A stretch of 64,000 nt of DNA from an uncultured delta proteobacterium (GTDB lineage Bacteria > Desulfobacterota > Binatia > UBA9968), in NCBI GenBank assembly GCA_963737905.1, contig CAVTUQ010000008.1, positions 1-64,000 of the forward strand, read 5' to 3'. Positions 30,064 to 46,941 of the stretch are shown here, one piece after another; the first letter of the stretch is position 1; the number at the start of each line of letters is the position of its first letter. Position numbers and translations under genes: made by a program. Under the pieces are notes generated by a model that worked only from the letters and a program-made list of their open reading frames with translations, searched no databases and had not been told where the DNA came from.

Positions 30064-31601
30064 TGGACCACATTTACATTACAACACCGCTATACTACGT
30101 CAACGCCGAACCTCACTTGGGCAGCGCGTACACGATGATCATTACCGATACACTGACACGCTATTACCGAGCGAAAGGTTGGGAAGCTTTTTATCTCACC
30201 GGTACAGACGAGCATGGCGACAAGATTGCTCAGACCGCTGCACATGCCGGCGTGGATCCTAAGCCATTTACGGATCAAATCAGCGCGACCTTCCAGGCGG
30301 TTTGGGATAGTTGTGGCTTTTCATACGATCACTTTATTCGCACTACGGATGCCTATCATGTGCGTTATGTGCAAGAACTCCTGACGAAAGTTTACAACGC
30401 CGGAGATATCTACTTCGACCGCTATGGCGGACTCTATTGCTTCGGCTGCGAGCGCTTCTATACAGAAAAGGAACTCGTGGACGGTAAGTGCCCGGATCAC
30501 CGGACCGTGCCGGAGCTTATCGAGGAAGAAAACTACTTCTTTCGGATGAGTAAATACCAGGAACAACTATCGCGTCACTTGGAAGAGCATCCCGACTTCA
30601 TCCGACCCGAGGGCTTCAGGAATGAAGTGGTTGCGATGCTGCGCGAACCGATCGGCGATCTGTGCATCTCCCGTCCCAAGAGCCGTCTCACCTGGGGCAT
30701 CGAAATCCCCTTCGATCAGCGCTACGTGACTTACGTATGGTTCGATGCGCTCATCAACTATGTGAGTGCATTGAAACATAGGGGAGAAGAGTTCTTCGAG
30801 AAATTTTGGCCACAAGCCGAGCATTTCATCGGCAAAGACATCCTCAAACCCCACGGTGTCTTCTGGCCGACGATGCTGATGGCGGCTGGTTTGCCACTGT
30901 ACAAACATTTGAACGTGCATGGCTTCTGGACCAGCGAAGGTCAGAAGATGTCCAAGAGCCTGGGAAACACCGTCTCGCCGCTGGAGATGAGGGAAAGGAT
31001 CGGCATGGATGCCTTTCGCTACTTCGTATTGCGCGAGAGCGTCTTCGGACAAGACGCGGACTTTAGGGAGGATGCCCTGACGGCGCGTTACAATGCCGAT
31101 TTGGCCAACAATCTTGGAAATTTGATCAGCCGGGTACTCGCCATGCAGAACAAATATTTCGCCGGCGTCGTCCAGCCAATAAGCGGCCCATCACCAAAAG
31201 AAGATCAGGCGCTCCAAGATAAATTTGTTCAGGCAGAGTCAGAGCTGAATCGTCATATGGCGGAACTCCAGTTTCATCGTGCTCTGGAGTCGGTCTGGGC
31301 TGCCATCGATCACGCTAATCGTTATATTGTGCAGACCGCACCGTTTACATTGTTTAAGGATCCTGCGCAGCGAGCCCGGGTCGGCGAAGTTCTTCATCAT
31401 TTGCTCGAAGCCATTCGTCAGCTCGCGCGGTTACTTGCGCCGTTCATGCCCGACACCTCAAAGGAGCTTCAGCGTCTCCTTGGGCTCAAAGAAGGCGACG
31501 AAGCCTATCGCGCCCCTTGGGGCCAGTGTTTCTCGCCAGGTCATAAGATCGACGGTCCGACCGTTCTCTTCCCGCGTATCGAACCGCCAAGCGAAGCATA
31601 G
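30060..31601 (+). CDS. metG: Methionine--tRNA ligase (short form)
   Basis: YITTPLYYVN..PHLG, TGTDEHG, KMSKS, LFPRI terminus. Confidence 0.95.
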   Translation: MMDHIYITTPLYYVNAEPHLGSAYTMIITDTLTRYYRAKGWEAFYLTGTDEHGDKIAQTAAHAGVDPKPFTDQISATFQAVWDSCGFSYDHFIRTTDAYHVRYVQELLTKVYNAGDIYFDRYGGLYCFGCERFYTEKELVDGKCPDHRTVPELIEEENYFFRMSKYQEQLSRHLEEHPDFIRPEGFRNEVVAMLREPIGDLCISRPKSRLTWGIEIPFDQRYVTYVWFDALINYVSALKHRGEEFFEKFWPQAEHFIGKDILKPHGVFWPTMLMAAGLPLYKHLNVHGFWTSEGQKMSKSLGNTVSPLEMRERIGMDAFRYFVLRESVFGQDADFREDALTARYNADLANNLGNLISRVLAMQNKYFAGVVQPISGPSPKEDQALQDKFVQAESELNRHMAELQFHRALESVWAAIDHANRYIVQTAPFTLFKDPAQRARVGEVLHHLLEAIRQLARLLAPFMPDTSKELQRLLGLKEGDEAYRAPWGQCFSPGHKIDGPTVLFPRIEPPSEA

Positions 31602-31606
31602 GCGGT

Positions 31607-32404
31607 TTGCTCGTGGCTCAGCAAAATAGCTTGGGGTTGATCGATAGCCACGCACACATTCAGGGCAAGGAATATGTGGGTGAAACCACGGCGGTTATAC
31701 AACGGGCCGGTGAAGCAGGCGTAGAAAAAATTGTCGTTGTCGGCGGCGCCGGAGACATGTCTAGCAACAGCGCCGCGGTTGCCCTCGCTGAGTCGTGGGC
31801 CAATCTCTATGCCACCGTCGGCACGCATCCCCACGACGCAAAAGACGTCGGCGAAGAGGAACTCCAGGAGCTAAAAAAGCTCGCCGCCCACCCAAAGGTG
31901 ATCGCTGTAGGCGAAACCGGTCTAGACTATTATTACAACCATTCATCACGCGAAGTTCAACGCCGAGTCTTCGCGCAGTTCATCCGCCTGGCGGGGGAGA
32001 CCGAACTGCCGCTGGTCGTTCATGAGCGAGACGCTGCAAGCGAAGCCGTCGAGCTATTGCGCAATGAAGGCGCTGGCAAAATTCGCGGCGTGATCCACTG
32101 CTTCACGGGCGATTATGAGGCTGCTCGAGACTACCTTGACTTGGGATTCTATCTTTCCTTCACCGGTATCATCACATTTAAAAACGCCGAGCCGCTGCGG
32201 CAAGTTGTAAGTAAAGTGCCGCTGGATCGAATGTTCGTTGAAACCGATTCGCCCTACCTCACGCCGGTTCCTCATAGAGGAAAGCGCAACGAGCCGGCTT
32301 ACGTGAGGCTGGTCGCTGAAACCGTTGCACGTGTAAAAAGCATATCCCTGGAGGAAGTTGCTCACACGACGACCGGCAATGTTCAGCAGCTTTTTCGGAT
32401 CTAG
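31607..32404 (+). CDS. tatD: TatD family hydrolase (YcfH-like)
   Basis: IDSHAH, GTHPH, GETGLDY, HCF, ETDSPYL. Confidence 0.93.
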   Translation: MLVAQQNSLGLIDSHAHIQGKEYVGETTAVIQRAGEAGVEKIVVVGGAGDMSSNSAAVALAESWANLYATVGTHPHDAKDVGEEELQELKKLAAHPKVIAVGETGLDYYYNHSSREVQRRVFAQFIRLAGETELPLVVHERDAASEAVELLRNEGAGKIRGVIHCFTGDYEAARDYLDLGFYLSFTGIITFKNAEPLRQVVSKVPLDRMFVETDSPYLTPVPHRGKRNEPAYVRLVAETVARVKSISLEEVAHTTTGNVQQLFRI

Positions 32405-32571
32405 AAAATGGAGTGGCCCCGGTTTCATGATTGTCGCCCATAGGAGATCTACAAGAAGAGTTAGAATGCGCGGCTTTTCTTGGGTGTCTTGGACGCGGAC
32501 CGCACGACATGCCAGACGATCACTCCGACCGGTACCCTAAGCGCCAGCCACGACAAGAAATCCCAAGTACC

Positions 32572-32700
32572 ATAGTGATCGACCTGGGTGCCGGCTCCAA
32601 AGCCAATGCTTGTCATACGGTAGAGGAAGTGGCCGTTCGAATCGATGGAACCACCAAAATCGAAACCACCTTCGGCACGTCCATCAGTGCCGGTCTGCAG
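32572..32700 (-). pseudogene. Internal remnant of a FhuA-like TonB-dependent siderophore receptor
   Basis: Translates as LQTGTDGRAEGGFDFGGSIDSNGHFLYRMTSIGFGAGTQVDHY, like the first barrel strands of FhuA-type receptors. Confidence 0.6.
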
Positions 32701-32778
32701 CGCTTTAGGTGACCGTAAACAGCGAGAAATTCCTCGACGATGGGGTTAGGCATGATCTACTATGGCTGGAAAGCTGCT

Positions 32779-33606
32779 CTATCCTACATCCTGGCCCCGG
32801 TCATTGTCGGGGTGATTGACGGCACCTAATTTCCAGTAGCCTTGAGTGTGGGCGTGCGCCCGGTCCATTCCCCGCTCGTTCAGGAGATGGCGGCGGATAT
32901 CCCGCATGACGCCGGCCTCGCACCCGATCCAGATCTGGCCGTTGCCCTCAGGAAATCGAAACTCCCGCACCGCTTGCTCCAGCCTTCGCCCGACCCGTCC
33001 GACTTCCCCGCCGTGGTGTAGCCACGTCACCTGAAACCGCGCGGGTGACTCCAACTCTAGCTCTTCCGCTGCGTCCGCCACCTCGACCAAGACATGGGCG
33101 AAGCAGGATGGCGGCAGCGCCTCAAGGAGGGTCCCCACGGCAGGGAGCGCCGCTTCGTCGCCGCCTATCAGATACCAGTCCGCCTCACCGTCCACTTTAT
33201 ATGCTCCTCCGGGCTGATGAGACACCGCAACTATCTGTCCCGGTTGGGCCTGTTCCGCCCAGGTGGAGCCGGGCCCCTCGCCGTGCAACAGGAAATCAAT
33301 CGTTAGTTCCCCTGCTTCCACATCCCATCGTCGGGGAGTGTAAGTGCGGTTCAAGGGTCGCTGCTGACCGTCCCTGAGGATCGGTCCCTCGGGTCCCCAT
33401 TCAGGGAGGACCAATTTCGGCTCACCGGGTGGAGGAAAATTCACCTTCAGGTGCTCCGCCGGGCCCTTCGTCGCAAAGCCCTCCAGTTCCTTCCCGGCGA
33501 AAACTATCCGGACCATATGGGGAGTAAGACTCTCCACCCGGGCGACTTCTGCCAGGCGCGGCTTTGCACGAACGCGACGGGGTTTCTGGGATTCAATTTC
33601 GTTCAT
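32779..33606 (-). CDS. Siderophore-interacting protein (ViuB/YqjH-type FAD ferric reductase)
   Basis: TPHMVRI, RTYTPR, IDFLLHG.GPGSTWA, GDEAALPA, GYWK; RBS AAAGGAG. Confidence 0.92.
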   Translation of the reverse strand: MNEIESQKPRRVRAKPRLAEVARVESLTPHMVRIVFAGKELEGFATKGPAEHLKVNFPPPGEPKLVLPEWGPEGPILRDGQQRPLNRTYTPRRWDVEAGELTIDFLLHGEGPGSTWAEQAQPGQIVAVSHQPGGAYKVDGEADWYLIGGDEAALPAVGTLLEALPPSCFAHVLVEVADAAEELELESPARFQVTWLHHGGEVGRVGRRLEQAVREFRFPEGNGQIWIGCEAGVMRDIRRHLLNERGMDRAHAHTQGYWKLGAVNHPDNDRGQDVG

Positions 33607-33817
33607 CTCAACTCCTTTCACAAAACGTTAGCTTAACAAATCTTCTCTTCTTAGCTGCACCCGTTGAAAATGTCCAATCCTGTCTCTGGTCAGACAGGCA
33701 TCGGAAAACGCTGCAGCGCGGCCTCGTGGCCGCATCCGCTGGGGCGCCCCTATCCCCAAGGTCGTGTTTCGCGGTCCCGATATTAGCGGAGCCCGTCTCT
33801 GGCGTGCGCCAGAGTTG

Positions 33818-34003
33818 TTATGTTTGCTGCCGGGTCTTCGGAGCGATCGCTTCAATCTGGTCGGCGACCTCGCGAAGTTCTCGCGCCAAACCCTTGAAAC
33901 CTTCATTGATGACTTCCGTTGAGGCTGTTTCGTAGTGTACGTGTACCAGTGCTCCTTGACCAATAGTGACTTCCCATTTTTTTTCCGAAACACTGTCCTT
34001 CAT
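33818..34003 (-). CDS. Small hypothetical protein (WE...VHVHY), paralog of the 42297 ORF
   Basis: RBS TAAGGAGG; colinear similarity to the 42297 ORF. Confidence 0.75.
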   Translation of the reverse strand: MKDSVSEKKWEVTIGQGALVHVHYETASTEVINEGFKGLARELREVADQIEAIAPKTRQQT

Positions 34004-34152
34004 GATTTCCTCCTTAGTATCGAGTCATCTTGTGATCTGACTAGCACCTAAATTTTCCCAGCGGTCCACCCTTTGAGAACACGGTCGGGATCGATGATTG
34101 AAGTCATCAATCTTTTGTCCAATCTGTATGATAGCTATGGCTATTTGCTCTT

Positions 34153-34464
34153 TCATTTTTTACTGATCCTTGTTCGCGGATTCTTCTTGCACACGGCCGG
34201 TGAATTCCAGCACTGATCGCTCGTGGCCGCTTTCCACCAGTGCAGAGCGCGGGCGATATGTTCTTCAATGGCCTGGGGTTTTGTTCGGTACTCGCTTCTG
34301 ATCGCGAGCATCAAGTAATGCAGAGCGATCATCGCCGCAATTTTGCCGTTGGGAATGTCGCGGTACTTTTCTTCCATCCACAGTATGGCGTTGAGAATGA
34401 CCTCCACATTGCAGTGAGCGGTCTTTTCACCCAATTCGCATGCTTTGCGTATTAAAGAGTCCAT
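34153..34464 (-). CDS. Hypothetical protein
   Basis: 103 aa, RBS AAAGGA, directly downstream of attenuator copy B. Confidence 0.55.
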   Translation of the reverse strand: MDSLIRKACELGEKTAHCNVEVILNAILWMEEKYRDIPNGKIAAMIALHYLMLAIRSEYRTKPQAIEEHIARALHWWKAATSDQCWNSPAVCKKNPRTRISKK

Positions 34465-34500
34465 GTTTCATCATCCTTTCGTTGCTGTCTGTCCATTCGG

Positions 34501-34572
34501 AAAATCGAAAAGCCCGCGCTCCGCCATGGGTTGGCGAAGCCGCGGGCTCTGGATTAATCACCTCTGGCCGCT
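34501..34572 (-). promoter_or_regulatory. Conserved RNA attenuator, copy B (tandem CCAGAG plus intrinsic terminator)
   Basis: AGCGGCCAGAGGT-GATTAAT-CCAGAGCCCG...GGCGGAG-CG-CGGGCT-TTTCGATTTT; homologous to 42309-42380. Confidence 0.7.
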
Positions 34573-34706
34573 GGCTATCTAATCGATCAGAGTCAGCTTA
34601 TGATTCTTACGAGCCTCTTTTATTTTTTACTGCGGTGCGACTCATAAGCGACAACATGAGGATTGCGATAGACGTGAGTTGGAGCATCAACGTCGCCGTT
34701 CCTTCA

Positions 34707-36525
34707 TCATGCCGCTGCGGAAACGCCATGGTCCCGCTGCAGGCTGGCGATCACTCCCTCGGTCCAATGCTTGGCCGGCACGTCATAGTCCACGTCGCAA
34801 TCGACACGCGGGTAAAGACGCGTGGCGCCGTGGCGCTCCAATGCCGCATCGAGATCGCGGCCGCACTTGCAGAAGTGATCATAGGTGGAATTGCCCAGCG
34901 CAAGCACGGAAAATTTCATCCCGCGTAAATTCAAGCCGTCTCTTCGCACGACTGCTTCCCAAAACGGGGCGGCATCGTCTGGGGGCTCACCATTGCCGTA
35001 GGTGCTGGTGATGATAACCACGCAGCTTTCCCGGGACAGCGCATCGACGGTGTAATGGGCCATGTCTTTCAGGCGCACATTGAAGCCCCGCCGAGCGATA
35101 ACTTCGGCGGTGCGTTGCGCGAGCGATTCGGCGTTGCCGGTTACGGTGCCGAAGAGGATTAACAGCGAAATGCTTTCAGAGTAGTTTCCCATAGCCTCAT
35201 GCCGGTGCGCGGCTGTTCCGTTTCCGTCCGCTGAATGACCTGGCTGAGAAGATTCTCCAGGCAAAATCTCGAGCTCCATAGATGATTTTTCTCCTTCGAG
35301 TTGTAAGTCTTGTGAAATTTCAATCGATGGTGCGTTCTTTGACAGCGCCGGTTGGGTAACCGACGGCTCTTCTAGTTCTCGACCCCAGGAACGGAAGCGG
35401 CGCCAGGCCATGGCCAAACCGGTCCAGACCAAAAAGCAGCCGCCCAGGGAAGCCAGACCGGCGATGGTCTGGCCGAAAAACCCAAAGGCTTCACCGGTGT
35501 GAAGACCCCTGAACCAGCTCCTGAGCTTTCTCCCTGCGCTGTTTTCCGAATAAGGCTCCCACGTCACCACTTCGGCTGTGGCACGGTTGAGGGTCAACTG
35601 CGAGCGCGCAAAATTGTGCGGCGCGCCGGGCTCGGAAATAGAAACCGTGACGGGTCCGTCCGGACGGGGCGCGAAGCGCATCATGAGCATCGTCCAGCCG
35701 GGAACTTGCCGTTCTGCGCTGGCCAGCAGAGCATCGAGATTGGCCGTTGGCTTGGCAATCCGTTGTTCTTCAGCATTACCCGCACCTCGACGGGCGCGTT
35801 GGGGCGGGCCCACGGGTCCTTGGACTCTGGGCGGTGGCTCGCTTCCCGTAAGCGTGTAGAGCACATCATTAGCCCAGGGATAGGACATGACTGCCGCGGT
35901 TAAGAGTAAGAACCACCAATACGCTCGAAGACCAGAAGCCGATGACGTTATGCCAGTTCCAGTCCCGGGCCTTGCCGCTCAGCCGGCGGTTAAATATCAG
36001 GCTGGTCTTCAGACCGCGCCACTTCCAGCTGTTCGGCCACCAGAGATAAACGCCGGTGACGGCGAGCCAGAAGAACGCCAGGTTGCAGGCGCCCGTGATG
36101 GCTTTCCCGATGGCGCGGCCTTCGTCGTCCATTCCCAGCCAACGGTGCCAATCGACGATTTCATGAAGGAAGTTGTGCGTCGCCGACAACCCGCCCAGCA
36201 GTTCGCCGGTGTAAGGATTGATGAAAACGGTGTTCTCGCGGCCAAGATTGACGATGACCGAAGCGGTGGGGTCCGACTTCATCGTGATAAATGCCGGACG
36301 GCCTTCACGATTGGCTTCACGCACTTTCCCCACCAGTTCGTTCAAGCTCAGGCGTTTGGCTTCCGGACCGGGCGTGACCCAGCGCGCATTCCATTCCGAG
36401 TATTCGGAGATCTGAGGCTCGTACATAAGCACGACGCCGGTGAAGGACATGGTAAAAATCACCAGGCCGGCGATGACGCCGGCGAGGAGGTGGGTCCAAA
36501 AAATGATCTTGTGAAATAGTTTCAT
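34707..36525 (-). CDS. PepSY-associated TM helix protein fused to a flavodoxin domain (one frameshift near 35885)
   Basis: FWTHLLAG, WHRWL, WNWHNVIG, LHTGE; C-terminal FGTVTGNAE, TSTYGNGEPPDDA, LGNSTYDHFC. Confidence 0.85.
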
Positions 36526-36552
36526 GGCTTGGTTCTTCGAAAAGTTAATTCA

Positions 36553-37084
36553 TTACTTTTTTAGGTCGCTGAACTCTTGGATGAACCAGTGGCGCAAAAG
36601 ATCCTTCTCATAACGCAAGTAATCATCCATCGGATAAAAAGTCCGCAACTGATAATTAAGGTCGGTCAACTCCCGTTTGCCGCTCCGAACCACTTGACCG
36701 CTCGGGCCGATGACGCGAAACTCGAGGGCAATCCGCGGCGGATAGAGGCCGTTGGTGATCCGTACCTGATCTGATTGCGGTCCATGCCACGGCTCGAAAT
36801 TGCCGGCGAGATCAACGTCGGTGACTCTGATATCCAGATTCATATCCCGCGGGATTGTTTCGTCTCCCATTTCTTGCATGAACTTTGCGATGGTATCGAG
36901 GATGGAGTCAGAGTTGGGCTTGAAATCGGCACGTCTCGCATCGGTGAACTTTTCCGGCTTCACAAAGACGACGGCAATTCGCGAGACTGGTTCTGGTTCC
37001 TGAGACGCTGCCGCGTAACTCGAAGCCGAACAGAACGGTCACGATCAGCGCTTGGTAAAGAATCCGGCAAGAGGGTTGGTTCAT
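36553..37084 (-). CDS. DUF3016-like exported protein (frameshifted N-terminus)
   Basis: PEKFTD, VTDVDLAG.FEPW, YPPRI.LEF, LRYEK.LL..WF. Confidence 0.75.
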
Positions 37085-37089
37085 GACGT

Positions 37090-37772
37090 CTACACTTCCG
37101 CAAAGCGACGCAGCAAATTGTGATAACAATTTGTCAGGCTCACCACTCCAGCATGGTTGGGCAAAGCCTGGTTGACCTGGTTGATCGCCATATCGAGATC
37201 GAAAAGAAGCGTTCTTTGACCATCGTCGCGCACCATACTCTGCACCCAGAAGAATGCTGCCAACCGCACGCCCCTTGTCACTGGATTAACGTGATGCAAG
37301 CTGGTTGCTGGGTAGACGACCATGTCACCAGCCGATAATTTCAGCGGATGTGCGCCGTAGACATCGTCGACGACAAGCTCACCGCCGTCATATTCGTCCG
37401 GGCTGCTGACAAAAAGGGTCGCGGATATATCGGTGCGTATCCGGTAGGGCGTGCCGGGAATTTGCATGACCGAGTTATCCAAATGCGACGCCAAACGATT
37501 CGCCGCCTTCGTAACGGTTGAAGAGCGGCGGAAAGACCCGGAGCGGCAACGCCGCAGTGATAAAAAGCGGGTTGCGCTCCAGGGCTGCGACGATCATGTC
37601 GCCCAATTCCCGCGCCTCGGGGCTGTTCTCAGCCAGCTGACGATTGTTTTTAACGACCTTCGATTGGTAACCTGCGGTGACGCGCCCGTCCACCCAGACT
37701 CGCCCGGTGCATCACTTCCCGACAATGGGCGACCTGTTCCTGGCTAAGAACGTGGGGAATATGGACAATCAT
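37090..37772 (-). CDS. PKHD-type Fe(II)/2OG hydroxylase (PiuC/YbiX), frameshifted
   Basis: [59 protein letters not shown]. Confidence 0.88.
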
Positions 37773-37787
37773 CAGGCTTCTCTTCCG

Positions 37788-40009
37788 TTAGAATCTAAAG
37801 AAGGTGCTCGCGATGAAGGTTCTTCCTGCGCCGGGCACGACATGGGACGGATGTATGCTTTCAATAAAGGCAGCGTTGGTAAGATTTTGAGCGTTCAGAC
37901 GGCACTGAATCCTCTCGGTGACGTTGTAAGCTACCGTCGCATCCCAGCGAACATAACCCGGGACCTCATTGACATTTGAATTGTTCGCGAACCGGCTGCC
38001 GACGTAAGTTGGCCCGCCGCCGATCTGCCACTTGTCCAAAAAGTCGTAGGTGGTCCAGAGAGTCGCGCTGTATTTCGGTATGTTCTGCGGCACCTTGCCC
38101 TGGAGGGAATAGGTCACGCCTTCGACAGTCTGAACGTCCTTGGACTTGAGAATCTTCGCGTCGAGAAAAGTGTAGCCGGCCCATACGTTCCACCCGGGCA
38201 GAATCCGTCCGGCTGCGCTGAACTCGACGCCACGGGAGCGCTGCTTGCCGTCGAGCACTTGCACGCCAAGGATAGGGTCGTTGGTGCGGGCATTGGTCTT
38301 CTCGATCGTGAACAACGCGCCTTGGAGGGTCAGCGCTCCGCCCATCAATAAAAATTTGCTGCCGATTTCGAAGATCTCGTTCTTTTCCGGCGGTGTCGCC
38401 TGGTTGTTGGCCGCCAACGTCAACCCTTCGGCCGAGGGGTTGAAGGCGGTTGCATAGGAGAAATAGTAGCTCTGCTGCGGCGTCGGATGAAAAACCAGGC
38501 CGCCGCGGTAACTGAACATCTTGTCCAGGCTGTCGAAGTCCACTTGCCCGGGCAATTTGTTTTCTTGATCGGCGCTAAAATAGTCCCAGCGCACGCCCCC
38601 GATGATGTCGAACTATTCATGCAATGCGATCTGGTCCGCGGCATAAATACCGAATCCGGCTGCGTCGGTAAAAGCGCTTCACCCCTAAGGTTTTGGGATT
38701 CGGGGTTTGATTGTTATTTGGGTTGTTAAGGGTCGTGGCGGGACCGGCGCTGGCATACCGGAGGTTATCGAGTCGTATCCCAGGACAGCTCTATGCCGCT
38801 AGCGAGCGTGTGCCCGAAGCCAAAGGTGTTGAACCGCGCGGTAAGGTCGGTCTGGCTGTCCGCAGATGCCTTCCGTGGTGTGGCGTTCCGGCCGGCTTCT
38901 GGTGATCCAGTGATTGTTGCGCCGGGTCCGCAAGTAATGGGCGCTGCGCAAGGGTAGGGCCGGTATACTCAGATCCAGGTCGCGGCGGACATTGCTATAG
39001 CGAAATGCGCTGCGTAAATTCAGAGCGTCGCTGAATTGATGGTTCAGGCTGATGGTGCCGATATTGGTGTAAGTTTTTTCATAGTCGTGCTTGGTCAAGC
39101 CATACCAGGTACCCCGGTCGACCCGCACGGGTTCGCCGTGGAAAAAAGGAAAACCGTAGTCCGGAATGTTGTCTTCGTGCTGAAACAAATAACTGAAGTT
39201 CATCTGGGTCGGCGTGCCGAGGCCCAGGTGAGAGTTGGAGCGAAGCCCTGGCGGGTCACTTTGACATGATCTCGGTCGACGATATCGGCGTGGTGGGCCA
39301 TGGCGTTCAGACGAAGAGCCATTGTGGGGGAGAGTGGCTGATTGATGTCCGCGGTGCCGCGGAAGTAAGGGCCGCTACCGGCGCTGGCGGTCCCATCGTA
39401 GAAGCCCTCGAGTTGGGGAGCCTTGCTGACCTGGTTGATGATCCCGCCGGTGGAGCCGCGACCGAAGTAAATGGAAGCGGGTCCCTTGAGCACTTCAACG
39501 CTTTGGATATTGAAGGTGTCGCGGAAATAGGTCCCTTGATCGCGGACGCCGTCCAGATACATGTCGTTGCGCGCGCTGAAGCCGCGCAGGGTGAAGTTGT
39601 CGCCCTGAGCGCCGCCAGCTTCACTCGCGGCGATACCGATGCCGGTGACATTGCGCATCGCATCGCGCAAGGTTGTCGCCGCCTGTTCGTTCATGATTTC
39701 TCTTGGCACAATGGTGATGGACTGGGGGATGTCTTGCACCGGCTCGGGTAGACGCTGCAGCCCCAGGTTCGGCACGACATAAGGACTCTTTTCCTCGGTG
39801 ACTGTTACTTGGGGCAGCGTGAATTCTTCTTGCTTTTGTTGTTCCGCTGGTTTGGGTTCCGCCGCCTTTGGTTCCGCCGCGAAACCGTTAGTTGCCAAAG
39901 CGAACGTAAAGGCCACGGCTCGGCCGACACCCTCACCGGCGGCGAGGGTGATCTTGTGGAGGAGTTTGTTCCTCCGTCTTTCATTGGCACGTTTTTCTTG
40001 TCGACTCAT
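37788..40009 (-). CDS. TonB-dependent siderophore receptor (Fiu/PiuA-like), several frameshifts
   Basis: TonB-box-like TLPQVTV, DIPQSITIV, LRGF, VEVLKGPAS..FGRGSTGG.IN, PGAGRTF, terminal F; RBS GGAGG. Confidence 0.88.
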
Positions 40010-40038
40010 GGTTTCCTCCAAAGTGTGAATTTTTTGTT

Positions 40039-40077
40039 GCTGGCTGGCATGAGTCGCCTCATACACTGGCTGGCTGG
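40039..40077 (-). promoter_or_regulatory. CCAG-repeat/hairpin element between hemP and the receptor gene
   Basis: Sense strand CCAGCCAGCCAG-TGT-ATGAG-GCGA-CTCAT-GCCAGCCAGC. Confidence 0.5.
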
Positions 40078-40084
40078 TTACTGT

Positions 40085-40270
40085 TTATTTGGTCAAAATT
40101 AGTTTACCGTTCCGCGTGATTCGCAAGCTGTACTCTTTGGTCTGATGAACGATGACGATCTCCCGCTCGCCTTGAAACAAATGAGTGCTTTCAATCCTGG
40201 GCTTTCTATCCGCCGTCGGTCAACGGGAACTGGATCGTTCAGAGTCGAAAATCGTTGGTTTCCCTTCCAT
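40085..40270 (-). CDS. hemP: Hemin uptake protein HemP (not in ORF track; in-frame TGA at codon 17)
   Basis: Translates RIESTHLFQGEREIVIVHQTKEYSLRITRNGKLILTK*, with the hallmark LRITRNGKLILTK C-terminus. Confidence 0.85.
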
Positions 40271-40277
40271 CGTGTTT

Positions 40278-41081
40278 CTAATGGAGCTCAAATTTTACCG
40301 GCAGTAGCACCCATACCTGTACGGCTTCTTTACCCCTGCGCGCAGGTTCGAAGAGCCATTTTTTCACCGCTTCAGCGGCGGAAAAATCAAGGTCACGAAA
40401 GCCAGCGGACTTCTCAATGAGAACTTCACCAACACGCCCGTTTTCCAGCACTCTGACTCTCAATAACGGTAACGCCTTGCGCGCCGATTTTTCGCGCCGA
40501 TTCGGGATAGCGCGGCTTGACCTGATAGCCTCCGAGCGGACGAGCCACCGCCGCAAGCCCATTGCCATTGCCACCACCGCCGAAACCATCCCCTTTTTCA
40601 CCTCTGCCTAGCCCTGCGACTGCCGTGCCCCCGCCGCCTCCGCCCATGCCGCTGCCGCCCGCGACTTCTACGTCGCCGCCGGCAAATAGACCTCCCACAC
40701 CCGCTTCCCCTCCTGCTGCCTCGCCGGCGGGCGCTTTGCTAGCGACGCTGCCTTTCTCCGGACCTGAGGCCGTCAGCTCGGGTGGCGGAGGTAGTTCCTC
40801 GACTTTCGGCGGCGGTTCGTTGGGTCTCGACTCTGGCGATGTCGGTCTTTATGAATCAGCCTGGGTGCTTTTATCTTCTCGACTTTCTTGGGCTCGGGTT
40901 TGGGCGCGGGTGCCGGATCGGGCGTTTGCTTCACTTCGGGGATATCGGTCAGGGAAACCTCGATATTCTGCGTTGGTGTCGTCGGCCTAGTCCCAGCGAT
41001 AAGGAGCGAAGCCGTAGGGATCAGGGCAGCGTGGATCAATGCGGAGATGGCGAAACCGGAAAACAGCGAATCCTTCATCAC
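40278..41081 (-). CDS. tonB: Energy transducer TonB (frameshifted)
   Basis: SALIHA TM, Pro-rich and Gly-rich linker, PRYPESAR, GRV..V...SAG...LD..A..AVKKW.F.PA. Confidence 0.85.
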
Positions 41082-41491
41082 TTGGTCTCCTTGGGTTTAA
41101 CAGCGATGGACAACTTGGTGGCGCCGGTCTGGCGGGCCTCATCCAAGATTTCCACAACTTTGCCATGTTGGACCCCGTCATCTGCATTGATAACCACCAG
41201 CAATTCGGGAGTCTTCGCCAACTCCGCGCTCAACGATTGGCGCAGTAACTCCTCCGAAATCGCACTCTTATTGAAAAAGAGTTGGCCTTCCTTCGTGAGA
41301 GAAATCACAGCGGTTTCAGTAGGCGGTTGGCTTCCTGTAGCGGCCTTGGGCAGATTCACTTGCACGCCGGTAAAGCGTGCCATGGAGAGAGTTGAAATCA
41401 TGAAAAAGACCAGCAGAAAGAAAATCGTATCGATCATGGGAATGATTTCGATGCGAGCCTTTTTTAAGTTTCTCTTTCTTTGCAGCCGCAT
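41078..41491 (-). CDS. exbD: Biopolymer transport protein ExbD
   Basis: IEIIPMIDTIFFLLVFFM, VNLPKA, INAD. Confidence 0.92.
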   Translation of the reverse strand: MRLQRKRNLKKARIEIIPMIDTIFFLLVFFMISTLSMARFTGVQVNLPKAATGSQPPTETAVISLTKEGQLFFNKSAISEELLRQSLSAELAKTPELLVVINADDGVQHGKVVEILDEARQTGATKLSIAVKPKETK

Positions 41492-42099
41492 TAGCGGGCC
41501 TCCTGTTGGGCGAGCAGAGCCAGCTCCAGGCGCGAAGCGAAGTATTCGATATTCTCCATCTCCTTTTCCGCGCGTGAGGTAAAATAGTTGTAGGGAATGA
41601 GAGTCAGAATCGCGATGAGCAATCCGGTCGCGGTCGCGATCAGAGCCTCGGCGACTCCCCCTGTCACTGCGTGAGGCTGGCCCAGTCCGGCGTCGGACAT
41701 GATGCCGAAAGAGCTGATCATGCCGGTAATCGTGCCGAGAAGGCCCAAGAGCGGCGCCAAAGTGATGATCGTATCGAGAATCACCAGACGGCGCTTGAGA
41801 ATCGGCATCTCGCCCTGCGCCGCCACTTCCATGGCTTTCGAGTAGGAAGGATTGCGGTGCGCTAGGCCGGCGGTGAGAACCCGCGCGGCTGGCAATGGCG
41901 ACCCCTGACCGTCGGAGAGCGCTTCCTTCAATTTCCCTTGCTCAACCGATGCGAGCATCTGCTCTACCGGCTGCTTCGAGCTGATGCCGCGCCAGTAGAG
42001 AAGGCGTTCTATGGTTACCGCGAGTGAAATGATCGAGCACAAAACCAAGGGGATCATGACCAGCCCCCCTTTGACGACAATGGAAATGATGTCAGACAT
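41491..42099 (-). CDS. exbB: MotA/TolQ/ExbB proton channel
   Basis: KGG.VMIPL, TLAPLLGLLGTITGMI, GVAEALIATATGL; start at ATG 42099. Confidence 0.92.
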   Translation of the reverse strand: MSDIISIVVKGGLVMIPLVLCSIISLAVTIERLLYWRGISSKQPVEQMLASVEQGKLKEALSDGQGSPLPAARVLTAGLAHRNPSYSKAMEVAAQGEMPILKRRLVILDTIITLAPLLGLLGTITGMISSFGIMSDAGLGQPHAVTGGVAEALIATATGLLIAILTLIPYNYFTSRAEKEMENIEYFASRLELALLAQQEAR

Positions 42100-42101
42100 G
42101 G

Positions 42102-42297
42102 CTACTGCAAGAGTCCTTTCTTGTTTTGAATTTCGTGTTCCTGTAATGTCGACACCCAGCCGGTTAGCCAGTCGTTGAAGTTCCACCGCCAAATCAGGAA
42201 AATCATCCTTCAGAATGTGAAGAGAACCGGTGCCGTAGTGCAGATGGACGGTTCCTCTTTCGCAGAGCGCGATTTCCCATCTTCGGTTTTTTTTCAT
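42102..42297 (-). CDS. Small hypothetical protein (WE...GTVHLHY), paralog of the 34003 ORF; in frame with exbB in this assembly
   Basis: RBS GGAGG; MKKNRRWEIALCERGTVHLHYGTGSLHILKDDFPDLAVELQRLANRL; a shifted frame ends KGLLQ* just before exbB. Confidence 0.7.
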
Positions 42298-42308
42298 TCT
42301 GGTCCTCC

Positions 42309-42380
42309 AACAAAAGAGCCCGATACTCCGCCGTGTCTCGACAGGATATCGGGCTCTGGGTTTCAAAACCTCTGGCCGCT
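42309..42380 (-). promoter_or_regulatory. Conserved RNA attenuator, copy A (tandem CCAGAG plus intrinsic terminator)
   Basis: AGCGGCCAGAGGT-TTTGAAAC-CCAGAGCCCGATA...GGCGGAG-TATCGGGCTCT-TTTGTT, then RBS GGAGG. Confidence 0.7.
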
Positions 42381-42405
42381 CAAGATTCGAAATCAAACAT
42401 TTCGG

Positions 42406-42597
42406 CTAAATTTCATTTACCATCTTTGCCGCCCTATCCTTTTCCAGCGGGACGATGATTTGCCTTTTGCATCGCCGGCATTTCAACTCGACTCCTTCCG
42501 GTACCAAGCGCGCCAGCATGCTGCCGCACAGACAACGAAAGGGTTTTATTCCCGGATGATCGTGGCCGGGCTTATCTTGGCCGTGTTGCTTCAACAT
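42406..42597 (-). CDS. Com-family-like zinc-ribbon protein
   Basis: FRCLCGSMLARL...VELKCRRCKR pattern resembles phage Mu Com; His-containing N-terminus. Confidence 0.7.
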   Translation of the reverse strand: MLKQHGQDKPGHDHPGIKPFRCLCGSMLARLVPEGVELKCRRCKRQIIVPLEKDRAAKMVNEI

Positions 42598-44636
42598 AGC
42601 TTTCTTTGTCTCGTGCGGCCTTTTGGTTTTCTCTGGCCATCCAGAACGAAGTCGCTACAAATGCGAGCAGCATCAAACCTTGGGCCGCCAATGTTTCGAG
42701 CGTTGGATATATCCCCAAGAATGGCACCTGCGGAACAAAACCGACCGGCGTGCTCGGAACCCATCCGGCGGCCTGGAGCTCCTTGATCCCATTGCCGGCA
42801 AAAATGAAGGCCATAATATAAAGCAGAGTTCCGGTGGCGCCGAAAAAGTATTTCAGCGGTATGCGCACGCCGAGCTTGAGAATCGCGAAAGTCACTACGA
42901 GCAGAGCCGCCAGACCCGTCTACGAAGCCCCAGACCACCGCGCCACGGTTGCTTTCGTTCTGTAGCCAGAGCGCTTGATAGAACAGCACGACCTCAAAAG
43001 CTTCTCGATACACGGCGAAGAACGAGATGCCCACGAGGCCGAGAATTTTTTTGCCGGAGAGAACGCTTCTTGACTTTATTTTGAATAAACGCCTGCCAGC
43101 GTTTGGCTTCGGTTCGGGTATGAAGCCAATAGCCGACATAAAATAGTGCAACCGCCGCGAACACGGAAATGAAGCCCTCCATGCTCTCGCGATGTTGGCC
43201 GCTAAAAGTCAGTACGGTTTGAGTGGCGATCCAGGTCAGGCCGCCAGCAATCAGCGCGAGGATCCAACCCAGGTGGATATAACGGATCGCCTCACTTGCA
43301 CCCATGACTCTAAGCATCGCCAGAATTGCGGCAAGGATCAGAGCCGCTTCGAGACCTTCTCGTAGAATGATCAGCGCGGAGTTAGTGAAGGAATAATAGT
43401 AGCCGGAAAGACTGTCGTCACGGGCCAGTATCTCGTGACGCCTGATCTAAATTGGCTTCGAGTTCCAGATGGCGTTTCTGAATTTCCTCGGCAGGAAGTC
43501 CTCGTCGGATGGCGTTGCGAAATTCGGTGAATTTTCCCTCGATGCTTCGACCAAAAGAAAGATCTTTCGCAAATAAGGCCGGTTCCGCCAGATCAAACCC
43601 GTCGATATAGGCTTCTACCGATTTTTGATATGCCTTTTCCCTTTCTCCCTTGTTATAGAGCTCGGAGGCTTCACGAAGCAGCGTGCGGGCGACTAGCAGC
43701 GGATCGTTGGGTTTTGTTTCTAGAAGTCCGCGCCGAAGGTAGGCGAGGGCAGCGTTGGCTTGCGACTCTTTGCTCAGCGTAGGGCTTTAGTTTTTCGACA
43801 AGCTGTTCGTCGGAGCTTGTCGCGAGGGTAGGTACGGTTGTTAGATCACTGGTGACATTCTTCGACTGAAGCAGGGAGGCGCCTGCCTTAGCCGAATCCG
43901 CTGAGAAACGAAGGGAAAGAACATAAAAAGCTACTTGCCAGCGCTGATCTTCGCTGAGGGCAGCGAAGGAAGCCATCGCGGTGTTCTCCACCCCGAAGCT
44001 AGCCACGTTGAAAGCCTTGAAAGGAGAGAGCCCGGCCATAAATTCCGCATCGGTAAAATTGGCCGGCGCGGGATTTTTAGGATTCATCGTGGCGCGACTG
44101 GGACCGTCGCCTTTGCCAGTCTCGCCGTGGCACTGCGCGCAGTTCTCCAAATAAATTGCTTTCCCGCTCGCCAGAGACGGAAGCTGTTTGGGGTAGGGAA
44201 CGATATTATAAGTGGCGATCAGTTTTTGTTTGGCACTATTGGCAAGCTCCGCCACCGTTTTTGGGTCGCCCTTGTTGTCAATCTGATTGGCAAGAGACTT
44301 GAGGCTCGGCTCAATGCTGGCCTTATCCGCTTTGTCCGCGGCTTTGAGCTGGTTGAGAAGCTCGACGATCCGCTTGGAGAATTCCTGCATCTCCCCGTAT
44401 TCATCCTGGTTGACGATCTTCCCGTCTTGGACAGCGTTTTTGTAATCGCTGCCCAGGTAATCGAGCAAGGCCACGAGTCTTCTTGCCTCGTCGTCGGCGA
44501 AGGCCATGGAGGCGCCGAATAAAAAAGTCAGAAAAATCACCACCGCTGATCTATGCGTTACGGCCGGCTCGCGTGAGACGTAACGAACGATTTGATTTGC
44601 TTCGGTTCACAGGCAGTGGTGTCAAAAAAGATCTCA
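42572..44636 (-). CDS. FTR1 iron permease with N-terminal cytochrome c domain (PbrT-like), frameshifted
   Basis: LLDYLGSDY..AV.DG, CAQCHG heme motif, REGLE and REAFE motifs, GIKELQAAG; start approximate. Confidence 0.85.
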
Positions 44637-44880
44637 TAGAGATTAAGCCTGAGCCGTCAGGAGAAATCGTTTCCTCCTAATCCACGCGCTTAGGCCGTCC
44701 ATGGCGAGCACGACACCAGCATCAACAACGAGATACTGTCCAAACGGCGATATTCGAGCGTTTGAGTCGTGACCTGTCTTGCAGTATTTTCATAGCTTGT
44801 CCTTCTCGCTGCTTGAACTTTTCATCGGCCGGCGTTATAGGGCGAAGAAGAGTCAAGCCGGTTGATGTATCGTCGCTAAA

Positions 44881-44900
44881 AAGTTAGTATCATCTAACTT
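44881..44900. promoter_or_regulatory. Palindromic operator for the DtxR-family repressor
   Basis: AAGTTAG-TATCAT-CTAACTT with perfect 7-bp arms; TTAG-N6-CTAA core as in SirR/MntR-type boxes. Confidence 0.75.
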
Positions 44901-44908
44901 GAGAAGTT

Positions 44909-44937
44909 CCTATATTGAAATAAATTTACTTTGTCAA
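44909..44937 (-). promoter_or_regulatory. sigma70 promoter of the iron-uptake operon
   Basis: TTGACA-N17-TATAGG; the operator lies just downstream of the predicted start site. Confidence 0.6.
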
Positions 44938-44941
44938 CCCC

Positions 44942-45613
44942 ATGTCAAGCTCTAAGGTTACTCAAGCTATCGAGGACTATCTCCGGACCATTTATGCTCT
45001 TGAAGAAGAGGTCCAGCCGGTGATTGCCGCGCGGGTCGCGGAGGAAGTAGGCGTTACGCCGTCGACGATGGTGAGTACGCTACGCCGATTGGAAGGCGAG
45101 GGTTATCTAAAGGTCATTCGGCGCAAGGAGATTCATTTGACCGCCGAGGGCAAACAAGTCGCAGAAAGGATTCTGCGCCGCCATTTTCTTCTGGAGCGCT
45201 TCTTGACAGATCTGTTGGGATTGGATTGGGTGAAAGCGCACCAAGAAGCCCATCGCCTCGAACACGCTCTATCGCAGGAAGTGGAGGACCGACTGGCCAA
45301 ACTGCTCGGCTATCCGACGACCTGCCCGCACGGCAATCCCATTCCAAGCAAAGACTCACAGAAGCCGCCGAAGAGCAGAGGGACTCCCTTGCATAGTATC
45401 GCGGCTGGGAAAGAGGTCGAGTTGGATTACATCACCGAGGGTGGGGAGCGAGATGCGCGACTTTTGGGTTTCATGCAAGAGCACGGGCTCGTCCCGGGCA
45501 CCAAGGTTCGCGTGCTCGACGTAGCGCCGTCAATGGGAGTGATGAGCCTAAAAGTCGGCCAAGACGAATTTTCCCTCGGCATCGAAGCCGCCAAAAAGAT
45601 TCGTGTCCATTAA
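44942..45613 (+). CDS. DtxR/IdeR/MntR family metal-dependent repressor with FeoA domain
   Basis: EDYLRTIY, HTH, RRHFLLERFL, EAHRLEH, TCPHGNPIP, GLVPG. Confidence 0.92.
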   Translation: MSSSKVTQAIEDYLRTIYALEEEVQPVIAARVAEEVGVTPSTMVSTLRRLEGEGYLKVIRRKEIHLTAEGKQVAERILRRHFLLERFLTDLLGLDWVKAHQEAHRLEHALSQEVEDRLAKLLGYPTTCPHGNPIPSKDSQKPPKSRGTPLHSIAAGKEVELDYITEGGERDARLLGFMQEHGLVPGTKVRVLDVAPSMGVMSLKVGQDEFSLGIEAAKKIRVH

Positions 45614-45657
45614 ATAAACAAAGTAAATGACTCAGCCCGACGGTGATCCGTCGTCGA

Positions 45658-45924
45658 TCAGGCCTCGGCAGGATTGTCGGGGTTTCGATCGGAGTCAGGG
45701 TTTTCGCGCTGACGCTGAGCCAACTCAGCCGAAAGAAAATCGATCTGGTCGCTAATCGGCGCGTCGCGGTCGATCAAGATCAGCTCCTGCCCGTTAACAC
45801 GGCAACGCCCGCTTCGAGCCCGATAGCCAACCTCCCGCAGTAATTTTTCCGTGCGAACCTCGATGTTCATTTGTCTGGCGGCGCTAATCAACTCGCTCAA
45901 CCGCGACTCGTGCTTTTGTCCCAT
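45658..45924 (-). CDS. Hypothetical protein
   Basis: 88 aa, EVR.E....SGRCRVNG...ILID; RBS GAGG. Confidence 0.65.
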   Translation of the reverse strand: MGQKHESRLSELISAARQMNIEVRTEKLLREVGYRARSGRCRVNGQELILIDRDAPISDQIDFLSAELAQRQRENPDSDRNPDNPAEA

Positions 45925-46080
45925 TGCTCAACCTCGAGTAGGATATTTCCAGTATCTCTTATCGAAGCGTGTTTGTAAATCGGCGCGGCGCTGATTAGCT
46001 TGCAAAATCATCGCATGTTGCTATCGTAGCGACGGCTTCCACAAAGGCTTACCCTGCGGGCAATCGTTTCAGGAGGGGCG

Positions 46081-46916
46081 ATGATCAAAAACATTTTGAT
46101 TCCTCTCGACGGTTCGGAGCACTCCACGGCCGCGCTCGATTATGGCATGTGGATGGCGGAAAAGTTTAACGGCACGCTCTTTGGACAGCACGTCATCGAC
46201 ACGATCTCAATTGAGGGCACCTTTTTTCACGATATTTCGGGCTCTCTCGGATTCGAACCCTACCTCGACTTTTCGACGAAGATGCGTGAGGTGTTGGAAG
46301 AGCGGGGCAAAGTCATCCTCGAAGATTTTTCCGAGCGATGCCGCAATCGGAAGATCAAACATCAGACCTTTCTGGATATGGGCCTCATTGCCAACGAGAT
46401 CTGCGAGCGTTCCAAAGTTGCCGACCTTGTCATTATCGGCCATCGCGGAATCAACGAGGAATTCTCCACCGGCCTGCTCGGTACAACTGCTGAAAGCATA
46501 ACGCGGAAGTGTCCCCGTCCCGTCTTCGTTTCGACGAAAAAGTTTACCGCCATCGCGCGTCCTTTGTTGCTTATGATGGCAGTCAGCGGGCGAGTTCGGC
46601 CATGGAGTCGGCGGCGGAGTTTTGCACGGTGCTTGGTCTCCCCTTGACCGTTCTCACCATCGCCAAAGAGGAGCAGTTGGCGGGAGCCATCGTCCAGCAA
46701 GCGAAGTCCTATCTGAGTTCTTACGCGATCGAAAGCCGTTATGAGATTGACCGTGGCTATCCAGAGCAGAAGATCATCGATTATCTGACCAAGTTCGATT
46801 ACGATATCCTGTTTATCGGCGCCTATGGGCACCGACGCATTATCGAAATGGTCTTGGGCAGCACAACCGAGTACGTCCTCAGAAAAAGCCCCTGCCCGGT
46901 TTTCTTGAATCGATAA
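46081..46916 (+). CDS. Tandem-domain universal stress protein (one frameshift near 46560)
   Basis: ILIPLDGS, DLVIIG.RG, LGTTAE; AYDGS, GAYGH, LGSTTE.VLR. Confidence 0.88.
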
Positions 46917-46941
46917 ACGGCCAGTCACTGAGAGTGAGGAA

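Follow-up and report, generated by a model that had tools for sequence, protein, structure and literature searches.

Com of phage Mu is a translational activator, the zinc finger of which was characterized by systematic evolution of ligands by exponential enrichment (SELEX); the selected RNAs contain the core GAG(N)2CC, mostly in two copies, which were predicted to lie on either side of a 3-4-bp stem with the closing pair C-G (PMC6483171). In the same work, Com was proposed to bind a hairpin adjoining the translation-inhibition structure of mom, exposing the start signals, and its authors suggest that more than one Com site is used. The present work concerns a 63-aa Com-like protein and two copies of a leader RNA, found in an iron-uptake locus of an uncultured bacterium (GTDB lineage Desulfobacterota; Binatia; UBA9968). 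The locus lies in a stretch of 64,000 nucleotides from the contig CAVTUQ010000008.1 of the assembly GCA_963737905.1, hereafter the window; the source assembly comprises 6.7 Mb in 46 contigs, with a completeness of 87%.

Among RNA-binding regulators of termination, BglG, LicT and SacY, acting through the ribonucleic antiterminator (RAT), as well as HutP and the ANTAR proteins, are antiterminators, while TRAP and PyrR are of the opposite sign. The binding site of the antiterminators overlaps the 5' arm of an intrinsic terminator in the 5' leader, and the default state is off. The site in the window likewise overlaps the 5' arm of a terminator in a leader, which would be off by default. The protein fold, in contrast, is unrelated, being a predicted zinc ribbon of ~35 residues with no evident sensory domain, and the site is made up of a 3-bp hairpin with a short single-stranded element on either side.

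Chromosomal com-like genes of Pseudomonas precede genes for a lectin-like bacteriocin (llpA), tailocin cargo and levansucrase, and their regulatory role 'remains to be explored', in the words of a 2018 review (PMC6240691). The window is similar in that a non-phage Com homologue is encoded just upstream of varied cargo. The differences are the cargo itself, the match of the Pseudomonas proteins to PF10122, and the RNA element with a terminator, neither of which is described in the accessible part of the review. Another point of comparison is the group HemP/HmuP/ChuP, of which HmuP and ChuP act post-transcriptionally on GCCAGCC-rich elements of 5' untranslated regions (bioRxiv 10.1101/2022.02.10.479982), the HPRE of heme-receptor genes. 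Common to both systems are a small protein, an iron-uptake cluster and positive post-transcriptional action, here proposed, on leaders of TonB-dependent uptake genes, beneath Fur. The protein families are different, no terminator is reported for HPRE in the part of the preprint available, and hemP, although present in the window, is missing from 31 of the 51 motif-bearing genomes.

The two elements of the window are copies of a conserved cis-acting leader RNA, composed of a 'Com box' and an intrinsic terminator. The Com-like protein is its proposed partner in trans, which would bind the box and open the inhibitory hairpin, leading here to antitermination; a probability of about 0.6 is assigned to this reading. 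Similar to com-mom of Mu, the gene of a small Cys4 zinc-finger protein lies immediately upstream of the target, the proposed effect is positive, and homology of the proteins is seen by profile comparison. The RNA sites are alike in architecture, with GAG and CC in two copies around a short stem beside or overlapping an inhibitory hairpin, but differ in the spacing of CC and GAG. The site in the window's family, directly beside the inhibitory hairpin, has a 3-bp helix with an invariant G-C closing pair and a CC-N-G(A/C)G element on each side of it. Unlike the single phage gene served by Mu Com, a cellular regulon of 1-4 leaders per genome is proposed here; the start-codon trap is replaced by an intrinsic terminator with a U-tract; and the first knuckle CxxC with a Pfam model match in Mu is opposed to CxC with no match. 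Control of the com-mom type is known, and zinc-finger antitermination is plausibly a new mechanism; no description of a Com-linked RNA box, terminator control or iron regulon was found in the literature searched, most subscription journals lying outside it.

Copy A occupies positions 42309-42385 of the minus strand (whole covariance-model match, 64.7 bits, E 3.5e-14). Its parts are the first CC-N-GAG (42375-42370), the mini-hairpin P1 (42370-42359) and the second CC-N-GAG (42359-42354), then the terminator stem (42357-42315), and finally the U-tract (42314-42311). Copy B lies on the same strand at 34503-34577 (67.6 bits, E 6.5e-15), with the first CC-N-GAG at 34567-34562, the second at 34552-34547, and a hairpin with a U-tract reaching ~34508. 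Both copies contain the common sequence AGCGGCCAGAGGT-N7/8-CCAGAGCCCG, followed by a GC-rich hairpin and a U-tract, and in both the second CCAGAG sits within the 5' arm of this hairpin, as the sequence-only reading had described. The fold energy is -31.4 kcal/mol for the whole leader of copy A and -35.9 kcal/mol for that of copy B (-27.4 and -32.1 kcal/mol for the hairpins alone), the terminator stems carry compensatory differences between the copies, and a ribosome-binding site is located a few bases past the U-tract.

The position and strand that the same reading gave for the two elements were exact, and the elements exceed chance. The pattern GCGGCCAGAGGT-N5-10-CCAGAGCCCG has two exact matches in the window, 42350-42379 and 34543-34571, and none in 100 shuffles; CCAGAG-N8-20-CCAGAG occurs at the same two places only (shuffle mean 0.05). 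A whole-genome search allowing one mismatch revealed the two copies, which are the sole non-coding ones in the genome, and one match in a coding region of another contig, with no matches for the reversed-pattern control. A search of positions 30000-47000 against Rfam 15 (cmscan, E<=5) gave no match at either element and two chance matches elsewhere. No sequencing run contains above 0.30 of the words sampled. The com open reading frame (ORF) is spanned by RNA-library contigs of relatives, of which X16 and X17 come from one study and X18 from another; two RNA-library contigs end at 42382 and 42405, and none spans 42176-42343, where a DNA run continues, contigs being unable to show RNA ends and a single study being involved.

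The covariance model was built from 18 instances of 10 genomes and yields 66 strong instances across the loci examined. The conserved leader is ~70 nt long, and its conserved part is ~30 nt. It is represented by single-stranded A-G-M-G-G-C-C-N-G-(A/C)-G; a 3-bp mini-hairpin G-R-U / A-Y-C with a loop of 5-7 nt; C followed by N-G-A-G-C-C-C-G-G, which is the 5' arm of a long hairpin with a variable upper part; and the U-tract (U-rich alignment columns 82-88). The first repeat is CCAGAG in 48 instances and CCAGCG in 18 of 66, the residue between CC and G is variable in both repeats, and the repeats are spaced by 13-17 nt, start to start. C27 C28. G30 A31 G32 C33 C34 C35 are invariant in 66/66, and columns 29-37 belong to the terminator 5' arm. 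Accordingly, of the tandem CCAGAG proposed earlier as a unit, the two repeats stand, while the unit presumably recognised is rather CC-N-G(A/C)G on either side of a 3-bp hairpin.

The terminator helix is 97.6% paired with compensatory changes among the 66 instances, a count somewhat inflated by the fitting of the alignment to the model structure. The mini-hairpin (columns 16-18/25-27), absent from the model, is 99.5% paired, with the pair 17-26 represented by GC in 41 instances, GU in 14, AU in 10 and other in 1. The observed covariation score was reached by none of 500 shuffles, and slid pairing registers were at most 64% paired. The pair 30-81 is G-U in 43/66, and such frequent G-U pairs indicate that the structure belongs to the transcribed strand. 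In 52 of the 66 instances, a Shine-Dalgarno-like site is found no more than ~90 nt past the model match, together with a start codon that opens an ORF of 40 aa or more. The median leader fold energy is -30.6 kcal/mol; with CC-N-GAGCCC forced unpaired it changes to -16.8 kcal/mol, and the 3' arm beside the U-tract becomes unpaired.

Two other structures were rejected. The 5' hairpin GGCC/GGUY with an AGA loop, suggested by RNAalifold, has the pair 11-17 broken in 11/66 instances, and the rival mini-hairpin covaries; an RNA-only antiterminator between the first repeat and the 3' arm would comprise merely 4 bp and is lost with CCAGCG, as judged by eye. The mini-hairpin loop columns 19 and 23 have the highest mutual information of the 5' half (C-G 38, U-A 9) and could form an extra pair with a bulged A and a loop of 2-3 nt, which is sterically odd.

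The com-like gene (42406-42597, minus strand; translation and homologue search) encodes 63 aa with the Cys4 zinc-ribbon core FRCLCGSMLARLVPEGVELKCRRCKRQIIVPLE. In seven of the relatives' loci examined first, tblastn revealed this ORF, always just upstream of a motif copy. The homologue database search returned 444 proteins at E<=0.01; JGI calls many of these 'phage FluMu protein Com', and several NCBI entries bear the label Candidatus Binatia or Myxococcota, with named homologues in Pyxidicoccus, Myxococcus and Vulgatibacter. Alignment of 46 homologues showed a freely variable N-terminus and a nearly invariant core, RCxCGxxLARxVPxGVELKCRRCKR, with R21 C22 C24 C40 R41 R42 C43 R45 invariant in 46/46. 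The four cysteines form two knuckles, with some 15-16 residues between them. Comparison of the 46-sequence profile with Mu Com (AF083977, coding sequence Mu_52) by hhalign gave a probability of 89.6% and E 1.9e-6 over 32 columns, covering both zinc knuckles and the KCxRCKRxII strand, which upholds the Com-like identity proposed earlier. A profile search of PDB sequences gave just weak zinc-finger look-alikes (PKC C1 domain, uS14) with E of at least 0.24. Judged by sequence, the 63-aa gene is real. Its product, in which the first knuckle is CxC, is a distant cellular relative of the Com protein of Mu and is predicted to have a zinc-ribbon fold and to bind zinc and RNA.

The association of motif and protein was surveyed in 90 genomes of the window's family, with E<1e-6 for a strong motif and E<1e-9 for a strong Com. 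A strong motif was found in 51 genomes and a strong Com in 53; the two coincide in 51, while 2 genomes have Com without the motif, none has the motif without Com, and 37 have neither. When the genomes G012, G048 and G068, flagged as unpublished, are left out, Com is present in 48/48 motif genomes. Six weak motif matches are bare-terminator-like, and the genomes containing them lack Com; G001, G008 and G009 contain only decayed com remnants and no motif, and a search of G001 for the region of copy B gave no match, a result without weight. The co-occurrence of the RNA with Com-like genes, for which a covariance model had been proposed as a check, is thus borne out in all 51 motif-bearing genomes. 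The motif is not a generic repeat scattered without regard to Com, since it is present in 1-4 copies per motif-bearing genome, in 2 copies in that of the window, and in none of the 37 Com-less genomes.

In motif-bearing genomes of the family, one copy is almost always found immediately 3' of com. The com gene ends within 400 nt upstream on the same strand in 42 of the 66 instances (39 by script and 3 by eye). Metagenome contigs picked by Com homology alone, 80 in number (70 distinct sequences, all fairly close relatives), contain a model match downstream on the same strand in 77 cases; of the other three, one breaks off just after the motif begins, another could not be assessed, and the third lacks the motif. 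Where com does not precede it, the leader is located 10-45 nt behind promoter-like sequences, as seen by eye: 8 copies have TTGACA-N17-TATACG and 5 have TGGCAC-N5-TGCT, the latter presumably a -24/-12 element of the sigma-54 type. Their position right behind promoter-like sequences suggests 5' leaders that are off by default.

The cargo behind the leaders of the family includes RRWEI-ExbBD-TonB-HemP-receptor clusters, where RRWEI is a small-protein family considered below; a porin-like protein with FMN_bind and ApbE proteins; a cupredoxin with a haem-binding protein; DUF4198, receptor and PepSY proteins; flavodoxin; an extracytoplasmic function (ECF) sigma factor with FecR; and a ferritin-like protein with catalase-peroxidase. 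In the relatives' loci L229:14465, L216:5001, L231:5019, L232:5029 and L233:11900 the leader sits ~10-15 nt past a sigma-54-type element. A ferritin-like gene then follows in L216, L229, L231 and L233 (identified by Pfam in two and by the N-terminal sequence in two), and a catalase-peroxidase gene is next in both loci scanned, L216 and L229. In several relatives a small helix-turn-helix gene of the XRE family is located directly upstream of the second leader copy (L036:8870-9130, L038:13202-13444, and upstream of L204:1501 and L209:457), two of which belong to genomes flagged as unpublished.

Adjacency and kinship could produce co-inheritance within one family, so the test across lineages weighs more. 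An exact-pattern scan of 185,579 species genomes, one per species, revealed at least 119 loci. Among the matches listed (119 loci), 13 are covariance-model positive and 106 negative, and com is located upstream on the same strand in 9/13 of the positive versus 0/106 of the negative ones; the 106 model-negative matches among those listed were set aside as mostly chance. Among the nine are records titled Dehalococcoidia, Chloroflexia, Myxococcota, Myxococcales and Nitrospira; Candidatus Binatia also appears in the titles. In two Nitrospira genomes the motif locus is without com, which is encoded elsewhere in the genome. Gene orders in other lineages are TetR-com-box-acyl-CoA dehydrogenase, in records of the Chloroflexota type, and fur-com-box followed by a signal-peptide protein of ~270 aa with no Pfam family above threshold. 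The module is therefore not specific for iron.

Of 151 evenly sampled Myxococcota genomes, Com is encoded in 25; 17 of the 25 com loci have the 5' box 11-107 nt downstream, versus 1 match elsewhere in 152 kb. The terminator form was found in 3 of these 17 boxes. In the large-genome group of Myxococcota the box is followed by a hairpin pairing with the ribosome-binding site and lacking a U-tract, and in the locus L352 it is the second repeat that pairs with this site. Of the 5 com loci found elsewhere in the phylum to which the window belongs, 3 retain the box or its variant. In the locus L214 (genome G181, same class, high GC) the box follows com without a U-tract, and an 8-bp closing helix CGAGCGGC...GCCGCUCG ends just before the ribosome-binding site, which may represent a third kind of expression platform. 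The strongest argument for the proposed role of the protein is that the box travels with com while cargo and platform change, as would be expected of a protein that recognises the box and has the effect of opening an inhibitory hairpin. With even chances, Com-like proteins and the ~30-nt Com box would constitute a widespread and so far undescribed class of cellular protein-operated RNA switches, represented here in Binatia-type genomes, Myxococcota, Nitrospira and Chloroflexota-type records, with interchangeable platforms, a terminator or a ribosome-binding-site hairpin, the case in the window being the first zinc-finger antiterminator, in an iron regulon below DtxR/Fur.

In the proposed mechanism, the leader hairpin with the U-tract would by default stop transcription ahead of the first gene. 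The Com-like protein, produced from an iron-regulated cytochrome c-FTR1-com operon, would bind the two CC-N-G(A/C)G elements around the 3-bp mini-hairpin. Since the second element, CC-N-GAGCCCG, provides the terminator with its base and 5' arm, binding would block the terminator beside the U-tract. Since the 3' arm beside the U-tract is left unpaired when CC-N-GAGCCC is held single-stranded, intrinsic termination should be abolished. Read-through at copy A would lead into RRWEI-exbBD-tonB-hemP-receptor, and at copy B into the distal genes, including that of the siderophore-interacting protein. Release of the repressor would thus be followed by synthesis of Com and then by opening of the leaders of costlier uptake systems, a two-tier cascade forming a feed-forward layer below a DtxR/Fur-type repressor. 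The com gene follows FTR1 in the window's family and fur in two records; in two other loci it lies behind presumed Fur-box-like sequences. That the protein binds the RNA, that its action is positive, and that it controls termination and not translation or stability is what we infer from these data.

The suggestion of the sequence-only reading that metal is sensed through the Cys4 site found no support: the four cysteines are conserved structural knuckles, and the module also serves non-iron genes. Tuning of activity by zinc versus iron occupancy of this site would be a bolder and less likely extension. Its broader idea of a Com-like protein acting on a repeat/terminator RNA over iron genes agrees with the comparative tests, except for the restriction to iron. 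Overall, that reading is partly supported by the comparative sequence evidence.

A number of observations weigh against antitermination by the Com-like protein. The 63-aa protein has no Pfam match at E<=10, the Com model PF10122 included; no NCBIfam match was obtained for the 8 family members tested, and none was found by tblastn in 50,697 phage records (E<=1); its first zinc knuckle is CxC and not CxxC. The element CC-N-G(A/C)G resembles the SELEX core GAG(N)2CC of Mu Com without being identical to it, and the spacing of CC and GAG differs. Blocking of just the six bases CC-N-GAG leaves the hairpin at ~-23 kcal/mol, so the footprint of the protein must reach into GCCC. Within the family, com and the first motif copy are adjacent, co-occurrence is partly co-inheritance, and related genomes are not independent; the genome G100 contains com and no motif, and G077 only a degenerate motif. 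Outside the family, the metagenome-assembled genome G510 has the motif, com not being found in it, 8 of the 25 Myxococcota com loci lack the box, and so do 2 of the 5 com loci elsewhere in the phylum. The ferritin-like and catalase-peroxidase genes behind the leader fit poorly with a simple activator in iron starvation.

The first alternative, considered unlikely, retains binding of the Com-like protein to the box and supposes that it mainly controls translation or mRNA stability, the hairpin with the U-tract being the com terminator or a stabilising 3' end. Translational activation by Mu Com, the Myxococcota boxes preceding hairpins that lack a U-tract and pair with the ribosome-binding site, and the ribosome-binding site a few bases behind the U-tract in the window are all consistent with it. 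In the predicted structures of the window's family, however, the ribosome-binding site is unpaired and the hairpins are GC-rich with U-rich tails, and a mere 3' end would serve no purpose in the copies that have a promoter of their own directly in front.

Another factor could read the box, Com being a neighbour only. The candidates are the RRWEI protein, which is the commonest first gene after the motif; HemP/HmuP, acting as with HPRE; and a regulator of the XRE type, genes of which are found just upstream of four copies. The distribution argues otherwise and makes this distinctly unlikely: RRWEI is encoded in 25 of the 51 motif genomes and in none of the cross-phylum loci (28/90 genomes in total, 3/39 without a strong motif). 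HemP (PF10636) is encoded in 20 of the 51 and in none of the 11 motif-bearing genomes of the genus g18 (26/90 in total, 6/39 without a strong motif), while Com is present in all 51.

The sign of the action may also be reversed, with the Com-like protein stabilising the terminator and limiting read-through as a repressor or attenuator. The box spans the terminator base and the adjoining mini-hairpin, so that the protein could clamp the folded form, and the ferritin-like/KatG operons behind the leader would fit repression in iron starvation. This is slightly less probable still, as the terminators are strong unaided (the median given above), the box in L352 overlaps the arm sequestering the ribosome-binding site, as in activating systems, and Mu Com is an activator.

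Very improbable is a protein-independent riboswitch, in which a metal or metabolite bound by the conserved 5' half would control the terminator. The layout is riboswitch-like, with a conserved 5' domain, a variable terminator, a ribosome-binding site and a gene, and the platforms are interchangeable; but the absence of Rfam matches, a conserved part of ~30 nt with one 3-bp helix and with no alternative antiterminator pairing found, and the diversity of cargo (iron uptake, acyl-CoA dehydrogenase, ferritin/KatG) speak against it, and the strict tie to com would be left unexplained. A DNA operator, the direct repeat near iron-gene promoters being bound by a DtxR- or Fur-type repressor or another transcription factor, is hardly credible, even though UniRef names some homologues 'Com family DNA-binding transcriptional regulator', because the repeat spacing varies, the orientation always follows the downstream gene, covariation keeps pairing through G-U pairs, and the element lies downstream of promoter-like hexamers.

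The proposed antitermination by the Com-like protein can be placed in the gene order of the window, where all genes considered are on the minus strand unless stated otherwise and were annotated by Pfam unless another method is named. The upstream part of the com operon contains the gene of a cytochrome c protein (43671-44543) and frameshifted pieces of an FTR1-type iron permease (42572-43317), the end of whose reading frame is overlapped by the start of the com-like gene. In the sister genome G002 an intact FTR1 of 407 aa directly precedes com. A DtxR-type repressor gene (44942-45613, plus strand) is divergent from the cytochrome c-FTR1-com operon, and the promoter region between them contains a perfect inverted repeat AGTTAG-N6-CTAACT (44882-44899), the sole occurrence in the window allowing up to 3 mismatches and a candidate operator.

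The leader of copy A starts 25 nt past the stop codon of the 63-aa ORF (42597-42406), and the first regulated unit behind it is a small RRWEI protein fused in frame to ExbB (41491-42297; tblastn, profile and Pfam). The RRWEI part corresponds to ~42297-42097 (profile match 42109-42294), and Pfam MotA_ExbB covers residues 137-251 of the fusion. Then follow exbD (41078-41491), a split tonB (40278-41081), hemP (40088-40213; tblastn and PF10636) and a TonB-dependent receptor split into three ORFs (37788-40066), in the order that had been read from the sequence. Farther downstream are genes of a PKHD-type 2OG-Fe(II) oxygenase (37090-37494), with a further ORF, 37475-37693, known from the ORF listing alone, DUF3016 (36553-36963), PepSY_TM (35869-36525) and PepSY_TM-flavodoxin (34707-35888), the final gene ahead of copy B. 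Behind copy B are located genes of a 103-aa protein without a known family (34153-34464), another member of the RRWEI family, 61 aa long (33818-34003; tblastn and profile), and the siderophore-interacting protein (32779-33621), in agreement with the earlier reading that this copy precedes the distal genes.

In the region 37788-43317 the receptor, TonB, FTR1, PepSY_TM, the oxygenase and the RRWEI-ExbB junction are frameshift-affected, while they are intact in G002. Differences of a single base are seen in relatives' DNA contigs at 42149/42150, at 42921 and elsewhere. Indel errors of the assembly are likelier than pseudogenes and probably also account for the in-frame fusion of RRWEI and ExbB; in G002 the RRWEI and ExbB parts match in different reading frames (tblastn) and appear to be separate genes.

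Proteins of the RRWEI family are ~60-70 aa long, with invariant W, H and Y and the motif (R)RWEIxxCxxGTVHLHYG, and have relatives in L034, L035, L037 and L038. No Pfam or NCBIfam match was obtained for the family; homology search in the ESM Atlas gave unnamed clusters only, mostly from Binatota, Myxococcota and Acidobacteriota. The 34464-34153 protein belongs to an unnamed family of ~95-110 aa (...ILKAALWLEEKH...) without a family match, relatives of which were found in L036:14718-15053, L228:9869-10156, L234:4577-4855 and L247. Its members are encoded by the first gene behind a leader copy or behind the same promoter type, often ahead of ExbB.

Com has long been a one-gene phage curiosity, with many chromosomal homologues to which no function was assigned. 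The locus described here provides Com homologues with a covarying RNA partner, a regulon and the prediction that the protein opens a terminator, and the covariance model can be used to find unannotated com genes and their targets in genomes and metagenomes. If the proposed mechanism is true, a new protein fold would join the few bacterial antiterminators, and protein-binding RNA boxes would use modular expression platforms, as riboswitches do. For the bacteria themselves, abundant and uncultured inhabitants of soil, it would mean a second regulatory tier in iron acquisition.

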